This document shows positions 2,965 through 26,243 of a DNA stretch of 64,000 bases, one piece after another (within the stretch, counting starts at the first letter, position 1; each line of letters begins with the position of its first letter). The notes beneath the pieces were generated by a model. That model was not told the origin of the DNA. It saw only the letters and a list, made by a program, of their open reading frames with translations, and did no database searches. This DNA is from an uncultured Acidimicrobiaceae bacterium (lineage in GTDB: Bacteria > Actinomycetota > Acidimicrobiia > Acidimicrobiales > UBA8592). The translations under genes and the position numbers were made by a program. The stretch covers positions 754,069 to 818,068 of the forward strand of contig CAVQUE010000015.1 of the NCBI GenBank assembly GCA_963716795.1. The letters run 5' to 3'.

Positions 2965-3726
2965 ATGGTGCGACTCGATGGCAAGGTGTTCGTGATCACG
3001 GGCGGCAACGGGGGCATCGGCCTCGGCATGGCCGAGGGGATCGCCGATGCCGGCGGCACCCCGGTGGTGTGGGGCCGTCGCGAGGACAAGAACGCCGAGG
3101 CGCTCGAGCGGCTCCGTGCCCGCGGCGCGATGCAGGCCCGGTCCTACGTCTGCGACGTCAGCGAGCCCGCCCAGGTCACCGAGGCCATGGACCGCACCAT
3201 CGCCGAGGCCGGGCGCCTCGATGGACTGTTCGCCAACGCCGGACGTGGCGGAACCGGGACCTCGTTTCTCGACCTGTCGCTCGACGAGTGGCGCGCCGTC
3301 ATGGCGGTCAACCTCGACGGGGTGTTCCTGTGCCTCCAGGAAGCGGCGCGTCGCCTGGTCGCCCAGGGCGAGGGCGGCAGCCTGGTCGGCGTCTCCTCGA
3401 CGTCGGCGATCCACGGGGCGGCGGGCAACGAGGCCTACGGGACCGCGAAGACCGCTGTCGTCGGCCTGGTGCGCGCGTTGGCCGTGGGCCTCGCCCGTCA
3501 CCAGGTCCGCGTCAACGCCCTGCTGCCGGGCTGGACCGTCACCGAGCTCGCGACGCCGGCGTTCGAGAACGACCGCTTTCGCGACGTGACGACGCGCCGG
3601 ACGCCGGTGCGACGATGGGCCGACCCGTCGGAGTTCCGCGAGATCGGCGCCTTCCTGGCCGATCCGAGCCTGACGTTCCACACCGGCCAGGAACTCACCG
3701 CCGACGGCGGCTACACGGTCTTCTGA
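2965..3726 (+). CDS. Short-chain dehydrogenase/reductase (FabG-like)
   Basis: MVRLDGKVFVITGGNGGIGLGMAEG (TGxxxGxG), NAG, SS..A..G....AYGTAK (YxxxK). Start at ATG 2965 inside the 2845 ORF. Confidence 0.9.
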   Translation: MVRLDGKVFVITGGNGGIGLGMAEGIADAGGTPVVWGRREDKNAEALERLRARGAMQARSYVCDVSEPAQVTEAMDRTIAEAGRLDGLFANAGRGGTGTSFLDLSLDEWRAVMAVNLDGVFLCLQEAARRLVAQGEGGSLVGVSSTSAIHGAAGNEAYGTAKTAVVGLVRALAVGLARHQVRVNALLPGWTVTELATPAFENDRFRDVTTRRTPVRRWADPSEFREIGAFLADPSLTFHTGQELTADGGYTVF

Positions 3727-5228
3727 CCCTCCGGGCCACGGGAGCTCGGCTCACCGGTCGGCGAGGTAGCCGGCGCCCAGGTCGCGTGGGTTCCGCAGCT
3801 GATGCGCTCGGGCAGCGCCACCGTGGCCACCGGCCCTGCGAGCGGCTCGGCCGCGTCGAAGATCATGCACGCCGAGCTGTCGGTGTTCATGTCCATGGTG
3901 TACGTCAGCAGGTACCCGTCGTCCTCGGCGGTCGATCCCGCTCGCGGGGCCATGACCGTCTCCGAGGCGAACACCCCGTCCGGGCAGCTCGATCACGTCT
4001 TCGCGGCCGGTCTCGACGTCGTGCTTCACGAAGCCGCCGAACCCGAACCACCCCTGCTCGGGCAGGGCGTTGTAGGCGTAGCGGTGGCGGCGCCCTCCGT
4101 GGCGGCCGTTGATCATCCCGAACTCCATCACCCGATCGGACAGCGGCGTCTCGGTGGTGGCGCCGGTGCGCAGGTCGAAGCGCCACCGGCGAGCCTCGGC
4201 CCCCATGGCGTGGAGGTCGAGGTAGCGGTAGAGGCTGGTCTGGAGATCGTCGCCGGGCTGGCGGTGCGGGCGACGGGTTGTGCTGGAAGAACCCGTCGAG
4301 GACGATCTCGTCGCCGTCTTCGTAGGCGTTGATCCAGTGCAGGACATAGGTCGGTTCGGCCTCGAACCAGCGGATCTCGTCGGTGGTGCCCCGGCGGGGC
4401 ACGATCGCGAATCGGTTCGGTTCGTCGGCGAAGAACCGCGGTGCGTAGGCGCCGGCTCGCAGTGCCTCGGGGTCCCAGAACATCGACGGCGGCGTTGAGG
4501 ATGGCGAAGTGCTCGGTGAAGGCCATGTCGTGGGGGAGCCGTGGCCCCGGCAGCGGCACGTCGATGTAGTGGACGAGCTCGCCTGCCCGGCGACACGACG
4601 CCGTAGTGCATGAACGGCGCGTCGGTGGAGTAGTTGAAGAACAGCAGCTCGCCGGTGTGCTCGTCGACCTTGGTGTGCGCCGATACGCCCTCGGCCGGGA
4701 AGCGGCCGTCCCAGGTCTCGGTGCCGAGGGTCTCGAGGGTCACCGGGTCGAGCCGGTAGAGGTCGCCGCACTGGTAGAAGCTCGTCAGCGCCACGCCGTT
4801 GTGCACCACGACGTCGGTGCTCGATGCATCCTTCATGCGGGTGCGCGCACCCCAGCCGTCGCGCCGTTTGGCCAGGCTCGGGCGCTCGGCCAACCCCGCC
4901 CACAGCGCCTCGCCCGGCCTCGAGTTCGGCCGTGAGCCCGGCCGTGCGCACGAAGCGATTGTGGTAGACGGCCTCGCCGCCCCCGAACGACAGCGAGTGC
5001 ACCATGCCGTCGCCATCGAAGGGGTGGTAGGTGCGAATCGATTCGAGCAGCGGGTTCTCGGTGTTGCGGAGGTACACGCCGTCGAGGTCGCTCGGGGATG
5101 GCCCCGTCGACATCGAGGTCCCAGGCCCGACGTTCGACGGTCTGCGGGCGCCACGGACCGCTGCGGTAGGGGTTCGTGTCGTCGTCGGGCAATGCCGACG
5201 GCAACTCGTCGAGGATCTCGACCTTCAC
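3711..5228 (-). pseudogene. Carotenoid cleavage oxygenase (RPE65/CCO family) broken by at least 5 frameshifts; either a pseudogene or uncorrected indels
   Basis: Family-typical segments lie in three different minus frames: VKVEILDELP..NPYRSGPWRPQTVE; DGVYLRNTENP..HPFDGDGMVH; VVVHNGVALTSFYQCGDLYRLDP..ELLFFNYS; LPHDMAFTEHFAILN; YVLHWINAYEDGDEIVLDG; MEFGMINGRH..GGFVKHD; EDDGYLLTYTMD..MIFDA..PVATVALPERI..GTHATW. GTG start at 5228 sits behind GGAGG. Confidence 0.85.
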
Positions 5229-5329: not shown

Positions 5330-5650
5330 TCAGAGTTCGCAGGCGTCGCCGTCTCCGGAATCGGCGCTCGCGTCGGAGAGTTCGACGGTCAGCTTCTTGC
5401 GCAGACCTCCGCCGGTGGTGATGACCATGCGCGAGGCCAGCCCCACGAGCTTCGGGGTCACGAGCACGCGTACGCCGTCGACGTCACTGGTCACGCGGCG
5501 GTACGGCTGGAGGTTCTTGCCCTTGACGTTGGTGTCGACCGACACCTCGGCGACCTTGCCTCAACCGGTGGGACGGATGTAGTCCACGGTCATCGTGCCG
5601 CCGCGCTTGCGCAGCAGCGAGGCAGCTTCGTCGGTCAGTTCGATACGCAT
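5330..5650 (-). CDS. Small (106-codon) protein with an in-frame TGA at codon 30; candidate selenoprotein, otherwise a nonsense-interrupted gene
   Basis: ATG 5650 is preceded by GAGGA (4-nt spacer). MRIELTDEAASLLRKRGGTMTVDYIRPTG-TGA-GKVAEVSVDTNVKGKNLQPYRRVTSDVDGVRVLVTPKLVGLASRMVITTGGGLRKKLTVELSD... The track ORF 5330..5545 is the in-frame continuation. TGA is at 5563-5561. Confidence 0.5.
5531..5546 (-). other. SECIS-like hairpin 14 nt downstream of the in-frame UGA
   Basis: The minus strand reads GGUGUC-GGUC-GACACC: a perfect 6-bp stem with a GGUC tetraloop. The apical loop is 20 nt from the UGA. The GGUC loop is also the apical loop of the E. coli fdhF SECIS. Confidence 0.4.
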
Positions 5651-5731
5651 GGGTTCCTCGTTGGATCGGCGGGGGTCTCCGGCCGATCGGCCGGTGAGCG
5701 TGGATGTCCTCAACCCGCAGCGGGGCGACTG

Positions 5732-7257
5732 TCATTCCGATGCGGGTCGGCTCGGTGGTGCGGCGTCGGCGGGGTCGCCGCCTCGGCCCTGCTCGTAGGT
5801 GGGCACGCGTTCGGAGTGCGGCGACGCGCGCCTGATGCGTGCACAGGCCGGCAGCCCCAGGCCTCGGTAGGCGGCTCCTGCGACGAAGAGGCCGGGTGCG
5901 TCGTCCTCGAGGATCTCGTCGATCGCGCCGACCCGATCGAGGTGGCCGGGGCGGTACTGCGGGAACGACGCAGGCCAGCGGGTGATGCGGGTCTCGACCG
6001 GGACGGCCTCGACGCCGGCGGTGGCCGCGAGCTCGTCCAGGAGCGTGGTGATGAGGGCGTCGTCGTCGAGCGCGAGGGCTCGTTCGTCGTCGGCGTGGCC
6101 GGCGGAGCACACGAAGAAACGTCAGGTCTTCGCGTGCGAGGTGGGGCCATTTGGCCGATGCCCACGAACACGCCGTCATCGTGAGGCCGGCCTGGCGAGG
6201 GACGAGGAAGCCGCTTCCGGTGAAGGGCGGCATCGAGCGCGCCGGGAAGGCAAAGGTCACCATGACGACCGAGGCGTAGGGGATGCCCGCGAGCAGCGTC
6301 GCGGCATCGGGCGACACGCCCCGGACCAGATCGGCTGCGGCGAAGGACGGGGTGGTCAGCACCACCGCGTCGGCGTCGAAAGGTGGGTGACCGTCGGCGT
6401 GGACCAGCCAGGCGCCCTCGTGTCGCTCGAGCGAACGCACCGGCGTGTGGGTGCGCAGCGCCGGTCCGAGCCGCAGCGGCGAGGGTGTCGATCACCCGGC
6501 CGACACCATCGGGATGGGTCAGAAAGATCGGCGAATCCGCAGGTCGGGCGTTGCGGGCCAGGTGGCCGTTGATCGAGCGGACGAGGCTCGGATCGTGGCC
6601 GATCGCGGCTGCGAGCTGGGGGAGTCCGGCGGCCAGGCTCAGCTGGTCGGGGTCGCCTGCGTTGATGCCGCCGAGCAGCGGGGCGACCAGGGTGTCCATC
6701 ACCGCGTCGCCGAGGTGGCGGCGGATGACCTCGCCGACGCTCTCGTCGTCGGGCTCTTCGTCGACCCAATCGTCGGCGTCACCGTCGTCGAGGTGGTCGA
6801 CCGGCGGATCGTCCGCGCTGCGGTCGGTGACGTCGTGCTCGCCGTCACGAGGCGTCCGGGCCCCGATGCCGTCGAGATCGCGGCGCGCACGGGCGATGCC
6901 CTCGGGATCGAGGATCCCGGTGGCTTCGAGCTCGTCGAGGTCCAGCGGCACACCGAGGTACTGGCGGCGAGGGAGCGGCACGAGCGCGTCGTCGAGCCAC
7001 AGCGACGCCTGTCCGGTGGCAGGCGGGACGAGTGCGTCGGCGAGGTGCAGCTCGGTGGCCAGGTCGGTCATGTGCTTCTCGCGCACGAGGAACGCGTCGG
7101 GCCCGGCGTCGATGCGCACGCCGGCGACCTCGGTGGTCAGGACCTTGCCGCCCGGGCGGTCGGACGCTTCGAAGACGATGACGTCGACGCCGTGGGTCTG
7201 GAGGGTGTGTGCGGTCACGAGGCCGGTGATGCCGGCGCCGATGACGGCGACCGTCAT
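5732..7257 (-). pseudogene. hemY: Protoporphyrinogen/coproporphyrinogen III oxidase (HemY/CgoX type), interrupted by 2 frameshifts
   Basis: MTVAVIGAGITGLVTAH..VFEASDRPGGKV (FAD fold) in the 5710..7605 frame. It continues as MRSLERHEGAWLVHADG..VVLTTP..ASVVMVTFAF..GSGFLVP in the 5484..6440 frame, and as ...RWPASFPQYRPGHLDRV..GLFVAGAAYRGLGLPACI in the 5732..6112 frame. One shift lies near 6470-6475. Confidence 0.85.
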
Positions 7258-17300: not shown

Positions 17301-18897
17301 ACGATTCGCTGCCGTCGAGGATGCCGCCCGCCTCCGCGACGCACTCGGCGTCGCCCTCCCCCCGGGGCTGCCGGCTGCCTTCACCGAGCCGGTCGACCGG
17401 CCTGTCCACGACCTCGTCGCCCGCTACGCCCGGACCCACGGACCCTTCACCGAACGAGAGGTCGCCGGCTGGTTGGGTCTCGGCATGGACCGCGTCCACA
17501 CCGTGCTCAACGATCTCCAGAGCGACGCAGTCGTCACCTCCGGGGAGTTCCGTCCGGGAGGCAGCGAACGCGAATGGTGTGATGAAGACGTCCTCCGTCG
17601 CCTCCGACGTCGGTCGCTGGCCGCGCTGCGCCACGAGGTCGAACCCGTCGACCCCGATGCGTTCGCCCGGTTCCTGCCGCTGTGGCAGGGCGTCGGCCGA
17701 AACCGGCGCGGCACCGACGCCGTCGCCGAAGCCCTGACCGCCCTCGAGGGCGCCCCGCTGGTGGCCTCGTCGCTCGAGCGCGACGTGCTCGCCGCACGCG
17801 TGGTCGACTACCGGCCATCGATGCTCGATGAGCTGTGCACCAGTGGCGAGGTCATCTGGACGGGCGCGGGAGCCCTCGGCACCCGCGACGGGCGGGTCCG
17901 GGTCGTGTTCCGCGACCACCTCGCGCTCGTCGCCCCGACCGCCGATGACACCCCCGACGGACTCGATCACCAGGCAATCCTCGACCATCTCGCCATAGCC
18001 GGCGCCTCGTTCTGGCCCGACGTGCTCGCAGCCGTGACGACCGCGGTCGGCCACATCGACGAAGCCGCTGCGCTCGCTGCCCTGTGGGATCTCGTGTGGG
18101 CGGGGCTCGTGACCAACGACTCGCTCGGCGCGCTGCGGTCCCGCATCGCGGGATCGGGCCGCGGCGCCCGCAAGCGGTCGGGCCGACCCCGCCCCGGGCA
18201 ACTGCGTCGAGTCGGACCACCATCGGCGTCGGGTCGCTGGTCGCTCGTCTCGTCGCTCGCCGGACGCGACGTCGACCCGACCATCGCCGCACACACCCGG
18301 GCCATGCAACTGCTCGAACGTCATGGTGTCGTGACCCGTGAAGCGGTACTGGCCGAGGGCGCACCCGGCGGCTTCGCCGGCGTCTATCCCGTCCTCAAGG
18401 CGCTCGAGGAACAGGGCAAGGTCCGTCGCGGCTACTTCGTCGCGGGCCTCGGCGCCGCCCAGTTCGCCCTGGCCGGGGCCGTCGATCGGCTCCGCGACCA
18501 GCGAGAGTCCGGTCTCGACGAGGTCACCTTGTTGGCGGCAACCGATCCCGCGCAGCCCTACGGCGCGGCGCTCGCCTGGCCGCCATCGGCGGGTCGTCCC
18601 GCCCGGAGCGCCGGCGCCCACCTCGTGCTCGTCGGCGGACATCCCGCCGCCTTCGTCGAGCGTGGCGGGCGCAGCATCGCCACCTTCGGTGACGTCGCGA
18701 CCGAGGCCTGGGCAGCACCGCTGGCCGAGGCCGTCCTCAGCCGTCGTCTCGGGCCGCTCGAGGTCTCCCGCATCGACGGAGCACCGGCTCCCGAAGCCGC
18801 CGCCGCCGAGGCCCTGTTGGGTGCCGGGTTCGTGCGCGGCTACAAGGGACTGGTGCTGCGCCCGGGTCGCGCCGCTGCCGACGCCGCGTCCCGCTGA
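14377..18897 (+). CDS. lhr: Large ATP-dependent helicase Lhr
   Basis: 1506 aa. AQAGAWPAIASGDHTLVLAPTGSGKTLAAF, DEIH box (VIIDEIHAM), HHGSLSREKR, plus the long Lhr-specific C-terminal extension. GTG start. Confidence 0.95.
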   Translation: MDALDGFSAPARAWFSTTFVEPTAAQAGAWPAIASGDHTLVLAPTGSGKTLAAFFWALDAIMTAPPPEDSSRRTRVLYISPLRALAVDVEKNLQSPLRGVQLAGERLGEPVQPVTVAIRSGDTPADQRRKLIRNPPDVLITTPESLYLMLTSKARETLRSVTHVIIDEIHAMAATKRGAHLALTLERLAEICEVEPQRIGLSATQRPLEEIARFLGGHTATGPRPVTIVDAGAAPDLDLEVVIPVEDLGAMGDIVDEPTSGPLAAGPVRRSIWPAMHPRLLELIREHRSTLVFVNSRRLAERLAIRLNELEAADEERRRLDALNATERAEELARTHGLPPPAVDLVRAHHGSLSREKRLEIEDRLKRGDLAALVCTSSLELGIDMGAVDLVVQVESPRSVASGLQRVGRAGHQVGETSKGKVFPKHRSDLVEATVVARQMRRGAIEETHIPRNPLDVLAQQIVAMTAMEDWSVPALRDLVRRSANFAELSDDVFANVLDLLSGRYPSEAFAELRPRIVWDRIEDTVRARAGAQRLAVTSGGTIPDRGLFGVFLPDGTRVGELDEEMVYESRPGETFLLGASTWRIEDITFERVVVTPAPGEPGKMPFWHGDGPGRPFELGRAIGEFLRSARTTDLRDRLLDEYCLDEMAADNVIGYLEEQIEATGVLPDDRTIVVERFPDEIGDWRICILSPFGAQVHAPWAIALRASLNESLGRDVELMWSDDGIVIRLPEAVDDIPLDALVPDAGAVEDLVIEQLPSTAMFSARFRECAARSLLLPRRRPDQRTPLWQQRQRAADLLAVAADHPDFPVLLETTRECLNDVFDLPGLKTLLADVARRVVRVVPVETPKASPFAQSLVFGWIAVYMYEGDAPLAERRATALSLDRDLLRDLLGAEELRELIDADVLADLELELQRLVDGRRARDGDEVHDLLRTLGPLDRVALGVRVTDDDQLDEWLAELAVERRIIDVTVAGARRFAAVEDAARLRDALGVALPPGLPAAFTEPVDRPVHDLVARYARTHGPFTEREVAGWLGLGMDRVHTVLNDLQSDAVVTSGEFRPGGSEREWCDEDVLRRLRRRSLAALRHEVEPVDPDAFARFLPLWQGVGRNRRGTDAVAEALTALEGAPLVASSLERDVLAARVVDYRPSMLDELCTSGEVIWTGAGALGTRDGRVRVVFRDHLALVAPTADDTPDGLDHQAILDHLAIAGASFWPDVLAAVTTAVGHIDEAAALAALWDLVWAGLVTNDSLGALRSRIAGSGRGARKRSGRPRPGQLRRVGPPSASGRWSLVSSLAGRDVDPTIAAHTRAMQLLERHGVVTREAVLAEGAPGGFAGVYPVLKALEEQGKVRRGYFVAGLGAAQFALAGAVDRLRDQRESGLDEVTLLAATDPAQPYGAALAWPPSAGRPARSAGAHLVLVGGHPAAFVERGGRSIATFGDVATEAWAAPLAEAVLSRRLGPLEVSRIDGAPAPEAAAAEALLGAGFVRGYKGLVLRPGRAAADAASR

Positions 18898-24078: not shown

Positions 24079-26243
24079 CGATGACGGCCCCGGCCCCGAC
24101 CACGTTGGGTCGGCGTCGCCGAATCCTGGCGTTGCTGCTGGGGCTCGCGGTGTCGATCGCCATGGTGACCCCTGCCGTCGCGCAGGACCGGCCCGGCCCT
24201 GCCCCCGGAGACGGGGGCGAGACCGTCGCGGTCGAGGTCGACGAATCGGGTGACACCTTCGTCGACACCGCTCCGTCGGTGCCGGTCGACACCGGACCCG
24301 CCGCGTCCGTCGACGGTGGCGGTGCCGACGTGGCAGATCCCGCCGGAACGCAGGCATCGACGGACGGTGTTGCGGCCGGTGCGGTCGACGACGGCGACCG
24401 CACCATCCAGATCCTCGAGAGCGACGTGGCCGGGTATCCCTCGGTATCGCTGGTCGCGGCGGTGCCGCCTGCGCTCGCAGGCGATCTCCGCAGCGACTCG
24501 TTCGGCCTCACCGAGAACGGCAACTCGCGCTTTCTCGATGTCGTGAAGCTGCGCGACACCATCGAGGTCGTCGTCGTCATCGACACCTCCGGCTCCATGG
24601 CCGGTGCGCCGATCGATGCAGCCACGGCTGCGGCGTCGGACTTCGTGTCCTCGCTCGATCCCGAGACGCGGGTTGCCGTCATCGGCTTCGGCGCCGACGT
24701 CGAGACCGCCGCGGGCTTCGACTCGACCCGGCGTGCCACCAACGCCGCCATCGATGGCCTCGAAGCCGGAGGCGAGACGGCGCTCTTCGACGCGCTCACC
24801 GCGGCCGCGCAGGCCTTCGGTCCCGGCGACAGCCGTCGGTTCGTCGTCGTGCTCTCCGACGGCACCGATACCGCGAGCTCCGCAACGCTCGAGGAGGCAG
24901 CGGCTGCGCTGGAGGCCAGCACCGCTTCGCTCTATGCGATCACCCTCCAGTCCGACGAAGCGGACTTCCGCGGCATTCGCGACCTCGCAGGTCGCGTCGA
25001 CGGCCAGGTCGTCGGCGCCAACGATGCCGAGTCGCTCGACGAGGTCTACGCCGCCATCGCCAGCCGGTTGACCAACCAGTATCGGGTCAGCTACGAGTCG
25101 CGCGCCACCGATGTCGCGTCGGTGGTGCTCTCCGTCGAAGCCGGCGGTGTCCTGGCAACCGCCGCAGACGAGATCGACCTCGGTGTGGCCTCGCCCAGCA
25201 CGTCTGCAGACGGCGACACCGCTGCCTCACCGGTCATCGCAATCGGCGAACCGACCGTCGTGCAGGCTCCCGAGACCGGCTTCTTGCAGTCCTCCATGGC
25301 GCTATACCTTGGCGGCGCGGTGCTGTTCTTGTCGATCGGCCTCGTCTTGTTCATCGCGATGTCGGTCGAGCCCAAGGGCCCGTCGGCCATGGAGCGGCTC
25401 AACAAGAGTCGCCAGTCGGTGAAGGCGGACCGAACCAGCGGATTGTCCTCGCTCGCCAACCGGGCCAGCTCGGTCGCCGAGCGGGTACTCGAGAAGCAGT
25501 CCAGACGGGGCGCACTCGACGCGAATCTCGAGAAGGCCGGCATGGACATGCGGCCCGGCGAATACATCGTTGCGTCGATGGGTGCTGCGCTCGGCGTCGC
25601 GGCGCTCGGCTTCGTGATGATGGGCGCGCTCCCTGGTCTGATCGGTCTGGTCGTCGGCTTGCTGGGGGGCCGGATGGTCCTCAAGCGCAAGGTGTCGAAG
25701 CGCCAGAAGAAGTTCGGCGAGCAGCTCGGGGACACGTTGATGATGATCGCCGGCAGCCTGCGTGCCGGTCACGGCATCGCCGAGGCGCTCGACGCCATCG
25801 CCAACCAGGCCGACTCGCCCACCGCAGAGGAGTTCAGTCGTGCCGTTTCGGAATCGCGCATCGGGCGCGACATGGTCGATTCGCTCTACGACATCGCCGA
25901 CCGGACCGGCAACGAGGACTTCGTGTGGGTGGTGCGGGCCATCTCGATCAACCGGGAGCTCGGCGGCGACCTCGCCGAGATCCTCGACAACGTCGGCGAG
26001 ACGATTCGCGACCGCAATCGGCTTCGTGACCAGGTCCGGGCGCTGTCAGCAGAAGGCAAGGTCTCGGCGCTGATCCTGTTCGCCATGCCCGTCCTCGTCG
26101 CGATCTGGGTCCAGATCTCGAACCCGGAGTACATGGCGTCGATGACCGACGAGACGGCCGGCAAGTTCGTCGTCGGCTTCGCCGTGATGTTGCTGGTGGT
26201 CGGCGGGGCCTGGCTCAAGAAGCTCGTGAACGTGGAGTTCTGA
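24075..26243 (+). CDS. tadB: Fusion protein: signal peptide plus von Willebrand factor A domain plus TadB (T2SS-F family) membrane platform domain
   Basis: Signal-like RRRRILALLLGLAVSIAMVTPAVAQ. vWA MIDAS VVVIDTSGSMAG...ETALFDAL...VVLSDGTDT. The C-terminal half has TM helices and the T2SSF motif FGEQLGDTLMMIAGSLRAGHGIAEAL...DFVWVVRAISINRELGGDLAEILD. GTG overlaps the cpaF stop. Confidence 0.85.
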   Translation: MTMTAPAPTTLGRRRRILALLLGLAVSIAMVTPAVAQDRPGPAPGDGGETVAVEVDESGDTFVDTAPSVPVDTGPAASVDGGGADVADPAGTQASTDGVAAGAVDDGDRTIQILESDVAGYPSVSLVAAVPPALAGDLRSDSFGLTENGNSRFLDVVKLRDTIEVVVVIDTSGSMAGAPIDAATAAASDFVSSLDPETRVAVIGFGADVETAAGFDSTRRATNAAIDGLEAGGETALFDALTAAAQAFGPGDSRRFVVVLSDGTDTASSATLEEAAAALEASTASLYAITLQSDEADFRGIRDLAGRVDGQVVGANDAESLDEVYAAIASRLTNQYRVSYESRATDVASVVLSVEAGGVLATAADEIDLGVASPSTSADGDTAASPVIAIGEPTVVQAPETGFLQSSMALYLGGAVLFLSIGLVLFIAMSVEPKGPSAMERLNKSRQSVKADRTSGLSSLANRASSVAERVLEKQSRRGALDANLEKAGMDMRPGEYIVASMGAALGVAALGFVMMGALPGLIGLVVGLLGGRMVLKRKVSKRQKKFGEQLGDTLMMIAGSLRAGHGIAEALDAIANQADSPTAEEFSRAVSESRIGRDMVDSLYDIADRTGNEDFVWVVRAISINRELGGDLAEILDNVGETIRDRNRLRDQVRALSAEGKVSALILFAMPVLVAIWVQISNPEYMASMTDETAGKFVVGFAVMLLVVGGAWLKKLVNVEF

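Follow-up and report, generated by a model that had tools for sequence, protein, structure and literature searches.

Bacterial selenoproteins whose selenocysteine (Sec) insertion sequence (SECIS) lies inside the coding region are a known kind of gene, and the CC/Se motif family is a known superfamily. The SECIS of Escherichia coli fdhF is an intragenic hairpin that stands immediately 3′ of the UGA and carries a GGUC apical loop. The bacterial consensus of the bSECISearch type is a stem-loop just 3′ of the UGA whose apical loop contains G/U and stands some 16–37 nucleotides (nt) from that codon. A HesB-like selenoprotein (TIGR01911, motif UxGP) is a long-known prokaryotic family (PMC13188914 Table 1), and it was present in 86 organisms (PMC5029168 Table S3). 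Here, we analyzed a stretch of 64,000 nt from contig CAVQUE010000015.1 of an uncultured Acidimicrobiaceae bacterium (the whole stretch is called the window below). On its minus strand, a small gene contains an in-frame TGA at codon 30, which is followed by a short hairpin with a GGUC loop. The UGA is very probably decoded as Sec within one gene of about 106 residues, and sequence comparison places this gene as a divergent, unannotated Acidimicrobiia branch of the CC/Se motif family (NF041239/PF28096).

Gene Organization and Product

The reading frame was checked on the minus strand. It opened with the ATG at 5650–5648, met the TGA at 5563–5561 (codon 30) and ended at a second TGA at 5332–5330, with 29 codons before the UGA and 76 sense codons after it. 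The frame encoded MRIELTDEAASLLRKRGGTMTVDYIRPTG before the TGA and GKVAEVSVDTNVKGKNLQPYRR...GDGDACEL after it, and the peptide across the predicted Sec was ...IDFIRPTG-U-GKVAEVSVDTNVK. A sequence-only reading of the window had described the GAGGA motif and the ATG, the TGA at 5563–5561, the 76 further codons and a hairpin 14 nt on, and all of these coordinates hold. The features of the gene are as follows:

5330–5650, minus strand: complete predicted selenoprotein gene; based on the sequence and frame, the matching architecture in 62 intact homologs, and synonymous variation with conserved residues flanking the TGA
5330–5650, minus strand, in translation: predicted product of 106 amino acids, MRIELTDEAASLLRKRGGTMTVDYIRPTG-U-GKVAEVSVDTNVKGKNL...GDGDACEL
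5655–5659, minus strand: Shine-Dalgarno-like GAGGA, 4–5 nt before the ATG at 5650–5648; read from the sequence, with purine-rich Shine-Dalgarno-like motifs likewise placed in many homologs
5561–5563, minus strand: in-frame UGA, predicted Sec codon (residue 30); TGA in 67/67 loci, Cys in distant homologs, aligned with the IscA Cys35-type ligand position
5531–5546, minus strand: SECIS-like hairpin GGUGUC-GGUC-GACACC, in the codons E-V-S-V-D-T; based on the sequence, covariation, RNAalifold and frozen codons
5339–5341, minus strand: codon of the invariant C-terminal Cys, C104 (...DACEL); alignments A2 and A9 show no variation in this column, and the residue is a candidate partner of Sec30

The 64-kb window was also scanned for other coding frames interrupted by TGA, and no other convincing candidate was found.

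Conservation of the In-Frame TGA

When each species was represented by a single genome, a scan yielded 67 homologous loci. Nearly all of them belonged to metagenome-assembled genomes (MAGs) of Acidimicrobiales or Ilumatobacteraceae, and the set also included Ilumatobacter nonamiensis YM16-303 and one Chloroflexota MAG. The gene was also carried by Ilumatobacter coccineus; two isolate genomes were thus among the carriers.

The stop at codon 30 was TGA in all 67 loci, and in-frame translation stopped there wherever the codon was covered. Upstream of the TGA there was a conserved N-terminal segment, M.IEITDEA..LL.KKGGTM.IDFIRPTG, and the start codon was located exactly 29 codons upstream of the TGA in every one of the 62 intact genes (ATG in 56, GTG in 6). 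The codon analysis of 62 sequences showed conserved residues and freely changing synonymous sites both before and after the TGA. The Gly codon just before the Sec-UGA (window 5564–5566) was GGT in 58 of 61 sequences, in genomes that are GC-rich and in which other Gly codons vary freely. This bias hints that the surroundings of the UGA are constrained. The terminal stop was also TGA in 47 of the 62 intact genes, including the gene in the window, which indicated that TGA is an ordinary stop in these organisms.

A further TGA was noted in two loci. The one in L046 (C-TGA-NH) was considered as a second Sec codon and rejected; it is probably a real stop, since the sister sequences terminate at that Cys with TAG or TAA. 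In the Chloroflexota locus (L065), a second in-frame TGA (about 5571–5573) was located exactly at the position of the C-terminal Cys (HAPT-TGA-AH-TAA), and an 8-bp hairpin with a GUU loop began 18 nt downstream, past the stop. This locus may represent a two-Sec form, and the replacement of its C-terminal Cys by an in-frame TGA suggests that residue 30 and the C-terminal position work together.

Structure and Constraint of the Hairpin

In the window, the UGA is followed by the 14 nt GGCAAGGUCGCCGA and then by GGUGUC-GGUC-GACACC, and the loop begins 20 nt after the UGA. TGA and hairpin occurred together in 67/67 loci. The hairpin core GUGUCGGUCGACA was invariant, five synonymous sites included. 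The spacer between the UGA and the stem was 14 nt in 38 intact genes and 17 nt in 24, which placed the loop at 20 or 23 nt.

Among 62 distinct gene sequences, the hairpin codons V (GTG), S (TCG), V (GTC) and D (GAC) showed zero synonymous variation, and the Glu codons just ahead of VSVD were all GAG (42/42). Zero synonymous entropy was found in four of the 20 well-conserved degenerate codon columns, and these four were exactly the VSVD columns of the hairpin. The other well-conserved degenerate columns all varied, with entropies of 1.6–1.8 bits at Ala9, Gly18, and Pro27. The closing pair of the stem was G-C in 30 sequences, C-G in 19, and G-U and U-G in one each. In the switch of this pair, Glu GAG became Asp GAC together with either a synonymous change of Thr from ACC to ACG or a change of Thr to Met (ATG). 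In the hairpin alignment 99.7% of the cells were paired, and RNAalifold independently predicted the identical helix. The variation among homologs thus argues that the hairpin is under selection at the RNA level.

The element conformed to the bacterial SECIS consensus in its GGUC loop at 20 or 23 nt, conserved structure, covarying closing pair and frozen synonymous sites. It resembled the fdhF SECIS in being an intragenic hairpin immediately 3′ of the UGA with a GGUC apical loop; in fdhF (NC_000913.3), this loop begins 18 nt after the UGA, compared with 20 or 23 nt in the Acidimicrobiia-type genes. Unlike that of the fdhF SECIS, the Acidimicrobiia-type stem is short and perfect (6 bp), and the binding of SelB to it is a prediction. 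A bulged nucleotide was seen only as part of a possible stem extension in one subgroup, as judged by eye.

A second GGTC-loop hairpin in the window (26102–26123, plus strand) was located in an ordinary membrane-protein-like open reading frame (ORF) with no TGA nearby, and it was regarded as a product of chance.

Cys-Containing Homologs and Database Records

When the product with Cys in place of Sec was searched against 5.8 billion proteins, only fragments of 63–71 amino acids were recovered, which covered the last two thirds of the protein. The full-length profile search gave 405 matches; of the 120 listed, all but one (P0035) were C-terminal pieces of 60–77 amino acids. The N-terminal profile search gave 211 matches, and the 120 listed consisted almost entirely of peptides of 29–34 amino acids that had been called as separate genes. 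P0035, a Joint Genome Institute gene call at L050, was the sole "full-length" entry for the clade among the matches listed. It is a mistranslation with TGA read as Trp, and the translation also runs through its own real TGA stop. All the public records examined either overlooked the gene or divided it, and the complete I. coccineus genome was no exception.

Among 1.84 billion cluster representatives, searched exhaustively with a profile, 89 relatives were detected, most of them C-terminal fragments. Five of them (P0333, P0336, P0342, P0343, and P0346) were continuous proteins of 100–102 amino acids. All five had Cys at the TGA column (G-C-G) and a second Cys at the invariant C-terminal Cys column. 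At the DNA level, the Cys codon was TGC in P0346 and TGT in P0342. The GUGUC-GGUC-GACAC hairpin was absent from both of these genes, and the P0342 gene had a different, weaker possible 5-bp stem (GAGGU...ACCUC) at the hairpin site. The VSVD peptide was degenerate in the five Cys forms (EIALD, EVVAD, EAAID, EVSVS), which fits an RNA element, and not the protein, imposing VSVD in the Sec forms. The Sec forms far outnumbered the Cys forms among the detected relatives; this is the reverse of what the Global Ocean Sampling study reported for most families (PMC2398784).

Relationship to the CC/Se Motif Family

The model NF041239, "CC/Se motif family (seleno)protein" (Moor_selen_rel), was the only NCBIfam match and was found for 34/34 members (best E 7.8e-11). 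Residues 1–90 of the window protein were collinear with model positions 1–89 of 91. When 11 Acidimicrobiia-type proteins (that of the window and ten others) were scanned singly, they scored 22–34 bits and did not reach the cutoff of 40, and the bridging Cys homolog P0346 scored 40.1 bits, at the cutoff. The C30A substitution in the Cys-substituted window protein cost 5.0–5.3 bits against NF041239, which indicated that Cys is conserved in the model column that faces the TGA. P0346 and P0342 (L076 5001–5303, L078 2300–2608) carried the precomputed label PF28096:CC_Se_fam. The PF28096 model itself was absent from the results of the Pfam library search despite this label on the Cys forms.

The proteins of the clade and of the family are both small, with about 100 amino acids. 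The motif that gives the family its name is CxxU (PMC13188914 Table 1). Unlike the family, the clade has the local motif P-T-G-U-G-K, in which CxxU is only partly present relative to the putative Sec position of the family itself. The clade is also overwhelmingly in the predicted Sec form, with its own invariant SECIS-like element.

Predicted Fold and Relation to HesB/IscA Proteins

An AlphaFold2 model was made of the homolog P0035 (not the window protein) with 59 aligned fragments. It had a mean predicted local distance difference test score (pLDDT) of 77.9 and a predicted template modeling score (pTM) of 0.67, and it comprised a strand-helix-strand N-terminus followed by a beta-rich body. 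The top Foldseek matches in the PDB were SufA (2d2a), IscA (1x0g, 1r94, 1s98), HI1723, AQ_1857, a Lactobacillus "Fe-S biosynthesis" protein, YneR and DsrR. Ten HesB/IscA-type chains led the results with probabilities of 0.77–1.00 and template modeling (TM) scores of 0.44–0.60, and nothing else was credible. The comparison with IscA/SufA/ErpA by hhalign (E 1.3e-4) placed ...IRPTG-U-GK (GCGK) on ...RTSG-C-SG (GCSG), that is, on Cys35 of IscA. P0346 matched PF01521 (Fe-S_biosyn) weakly (18.7 bits vs. a gathering score of 26.3), and its match to the A-type-carrier-like domain at the N-terminus of NfuA was likewise weak. Pfam had no match for the window protein or the clade members, none of which reached any PF01521 threshold. 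A match to 3t90 in the PDB sequence-profile search was rejected as chance only.

The C-terminal Cys column was invariant, and C-x-x-C was found in some Ilumatobacter members. Conservation of the three-ligand motif C-X(n)-C-X-C was limited to its first position, taken by the predicted Sec, and to a single Cys at the C-terminus. The predicted fold, the alignment at the Cys35 position and the Cys on the C-terminal tail are features in common with IscA, SufA, and ErpA. In place of the CGC motif of IscA, the clade has one Cys at the C-terminus, extended to CxxC in some Ilumatobacter members; the first ligand would have selenium instead of sulfur, with hypothetical cluster binding. Unlike the isc and suf genes, the Acidimicrobiia-type gene was not found in isc or suf operons in the loci compared. 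The HesB-like selenoprotein TIGR01911 is a precedent for Sec in a small HesB/IscA-related protein. This is a functional analogy and not membership: no member matched TIGR01911 at E ≤ 1, and the motifs differ (G-U-G-K vs. U-x-G-P).

On the modeled structure, these CC/Se relatives are predicted to be divergent HesB/IscA-fold proteins with Sec at the first ligand position. As far as we could see, the link to the IscA fold had not been stated before for the CC/Se family.

Selenocysteine Machinery

The SelA, SelB, and SelD proteins of E. coli were searched by tblastn against the window and all loci, and only a selD gene in L048 was found. With ARAGORN, none of the 67 loci gave a tRNA-Sec, and the window gave no tRNA of any kind. 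The selD gene of L048, an Acidimicrobiales MAG, was located 8.6 kb downstream of the homolog on the same contig, and its product showed 42% identity to E. coli SelD. It contained an in-frame TGA (18655–18657) at the Cys17 position (SHGAG-TGA-GCK), with two strong hairpins after it. A TGA at Cys17 is the classic selenoprotein form of SelD.

Among the carriers of the gene, I. coccineus and I. nonamiensis are positive for SelD, SelA, and SelB, with 15 and 10 selenoproteins, respectively (Peng et al., 2016; PMC5029168 Tables S1, S2). In the same class, selA/B/C/D were reported in all Actinomarinales (2026 preprint, bioRxiv 10.64898/2026.04.03.716425). The Sec machinery is supported for relatives and predicted for the genome of the window itself.

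Genomic Context

The named neighbors were located by tblastn. The order hemE-hemY-(small cyclase-like gene)-gene-lnt-dtd-GT4 was found in 31 loci, including the window, and the order rne-gene-rplU-rpmA was found in 25 Ilumatobacteraceae loci. The gene is an independent unit in housekeeping regions. It had been remarked from the sequence alone that the gene sits where hemQ/chdC usually follows hemY. The positional part of this remark stood, with the hemY–lnt slot in 31 loci; a link to heme was not supported, with the gene between rne and rplU in 25 others. In eight of the 31 loci (L030, L035, L041, L046, L047, L052, L058, and L059), the gene was inverted relative to the flanking blocks and remained in the same intergenic slot.

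Two neighboring genes on the minus strand of the window were broken. The hemY gene (5843–7251) was split over three reading frames (−2, −3, and −1) and was in a single frame in the closest relative (L001). Downstream, a carotenoid-cleavage-oxygenase-like gene (3711–5113) was scattered across several frames. Both point to long-read indel errors or pseudogenization in the assembly.

Discussion

The comparison of homologs provided a recoding signature, a constraint on the hairpin at the RNA level, a correspondence of Sec and Cys, a family relationship and a fold. What the sequence-only reading had put forward was borne out in its main points. Its in-frame UGA read as Sec agreed with the TGA in 67/67 loci, the coding conservation across it and the Cys in the same column of distant homologs; its SECIS-like hairpin was the one that RNAalifold recovered, with five codons free of synonymous change and a covarying closing pair; and its resemblance to the CC/Se family was matched by NF041239 as the sole NCBIfam hit, over the full length and in 34/34 members, with the window protein below the cutoff. 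What is new is the clade, which lies below the curated cutoff and is unannotated in the records examined; no paper describing it was found in the literature searched.

Two other readings of the interrupted frame were considered besides decoding as Sec. One is that the UGA is read through without Sec, either by a near-cognate tRNA (Trp/Cys) or under an alternative code in which TGA stands for Trp or Gly. The P0035 entry is translated with TGA as Trp, and Sec machinery is not visible in the window, which would suit this reading. However, that same entry overruns a real stop, and 47 of 62 homologs, the window gene among them, end at TGA. The homologs have Cys, and not Trp or Gly, at the position, and the Cys-form gene P0346 lacks the conserved SECIS-like hairpin, in place of which P0342 has only a different, weaker possible stem. 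Moreover, the Sec trait is documented in carrier genomes. We consider read-through without Sec very unlikely.

The other reading is that there are two separate genes, a leader ORF of 29 codons and an ORF of 71 codons that starts from a GTG in the hairpin, with the hairpin regulating initiation or coupling. This is how the public gene calls present the locus, as "hypothetical proteins" of 29 and 64–71 amino acids, and a GTG start codon is indeed present in the 5′ arm of the hairpin. Yet the two ORFs share one frame in 67/67 loci, where the distance from TGA to GTG is 15 or 18 nt, made up of the 14- or 17-nt spacer and the first base of the stem, and always whole codons, and the residues between them (GKVAE or GRTKxD) are conserved as protein. 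The Cys-form homologs are continuous across the junction with Cys at the TGA position, and the NF041239 alignment spans it from residue 1 to about 89. Neither half would suffice for the predicted fold, in which the "leader" supplies strands 1 and 2 as well as helix 1. Such an arrangement is highly improbable. An error of sequencing or assembly, or the decay of the gene to a pseudogene within a stretch that is degenerating or of low quality, could be imagined next to the frameshifted hemY and carotenoid-oxygenase-like genes, but it can practically be disregarded, as the TGA is shared by 67 independent assemblies from different studies with two isolate genomes included, the frame and the amino acid conservation are intact on either side of it, and the errors in the neighbors are indels and not substitutions.

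Several observations nevertheless weigh against decoding as Sec or against the family and fold assigned here. The hairpin alone is insignificant: two perfect 6-bp hairpins with a GGTC loop were found in the window, compared with ~0.8 expected in a composition-matched simulation. The local minimum free energy z-score of the hairpin region in the window was only −1.0. The significance of the hairpin therefore comes from its position and conservation and not from the single sequence. The covariation came from one pair and probably reflects few evolutionary events, and the remaining five pairs, which never break, were invariant or varied on one side. No SECIS model of Rfam, nor any other Rfam model in a meaningful way, matched the whole window at gathering thresholds or the region 5480–5600 in E-value mode. 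No selA, selB, selC, or selD gene was found in the 64-kb window, the part of the genome that was covered. With regard to the family, the window protein scored 24.4 bits against the NF041239 cutoff of 40, and it has Pro at −3 and Gly at +1 where the introduction of Cys gained 2.2 and 3.7 bits, respectively. The N-terminal 35 residues of the AlphaFold2 model were without alignment depth and its C-terminal tail had low confidence; the link to IscA is structural, with an hhalign probability of only 53%. The gene neighborhood gave no functional clue in the loci compared. Finally, neighboring genes in the window have indel problems, although such indels would not make a conserved TGA.

With UGA30 decoded as Sec, the intragenic hairpin that starts 14 nt past this codon and has GGUC in its loop would serve as a bacterial SECIS. 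We infer that it would recruit SelB with Sec-tRNA(Sec) to the ribosome paused at UGA30, and that Sec is actually inserted there. The product would take the fold of HesB/IscA/SufA (A-type carriers), with Sec30 at the position of the first cluster-ligand Cys (IscA Cys35). The invariant Cys three residues from the C-terminus would stand in for the C-terminal CxC ligands, and it is likely the partner of Sec30. As for the biochemical role that we infer, the two residues may form a Se/S ligand or redox pair. The pair might serve in the binding or transfer of metal, chalcogen or Fe-S clusters, or it might undergo selenenylsulfide cycling.

A more far-reaching view can be put forward as a speculation, and we hold it to be doubtful as a whole. 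The clade would then be an essentially obligate-selenium branch of the A-type-carrier fold, with Sec in place of the first cluster ligand, acting as a Se-ligated Fe-S or metal carrier or as a dedicated selenium/persulfide relay, and its SECIS would be constrained strongly enough to dictate the invariant VSVD. The protein would have a conserved housekeeping role in Acidimicrobiia of marine and fresh waters and would have escaped every annotation pipeline.

The current understanding of Sec decoding is not overturned by this locus. It offers a clear example from nature of five protein codons frozen by an RNA element, with the Cys forms displaying the peptide in the absence of this constraint. If the clade were added to the family model, hundreds of selenoproteins would be recovered in an abundant aquatic lineage. 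For the uncharacterized CC/Se family, the HesB/IscA fold gives a concrete hypothesis, namely a Se/S ligand or redox pair formed with the C-terminal Cys.

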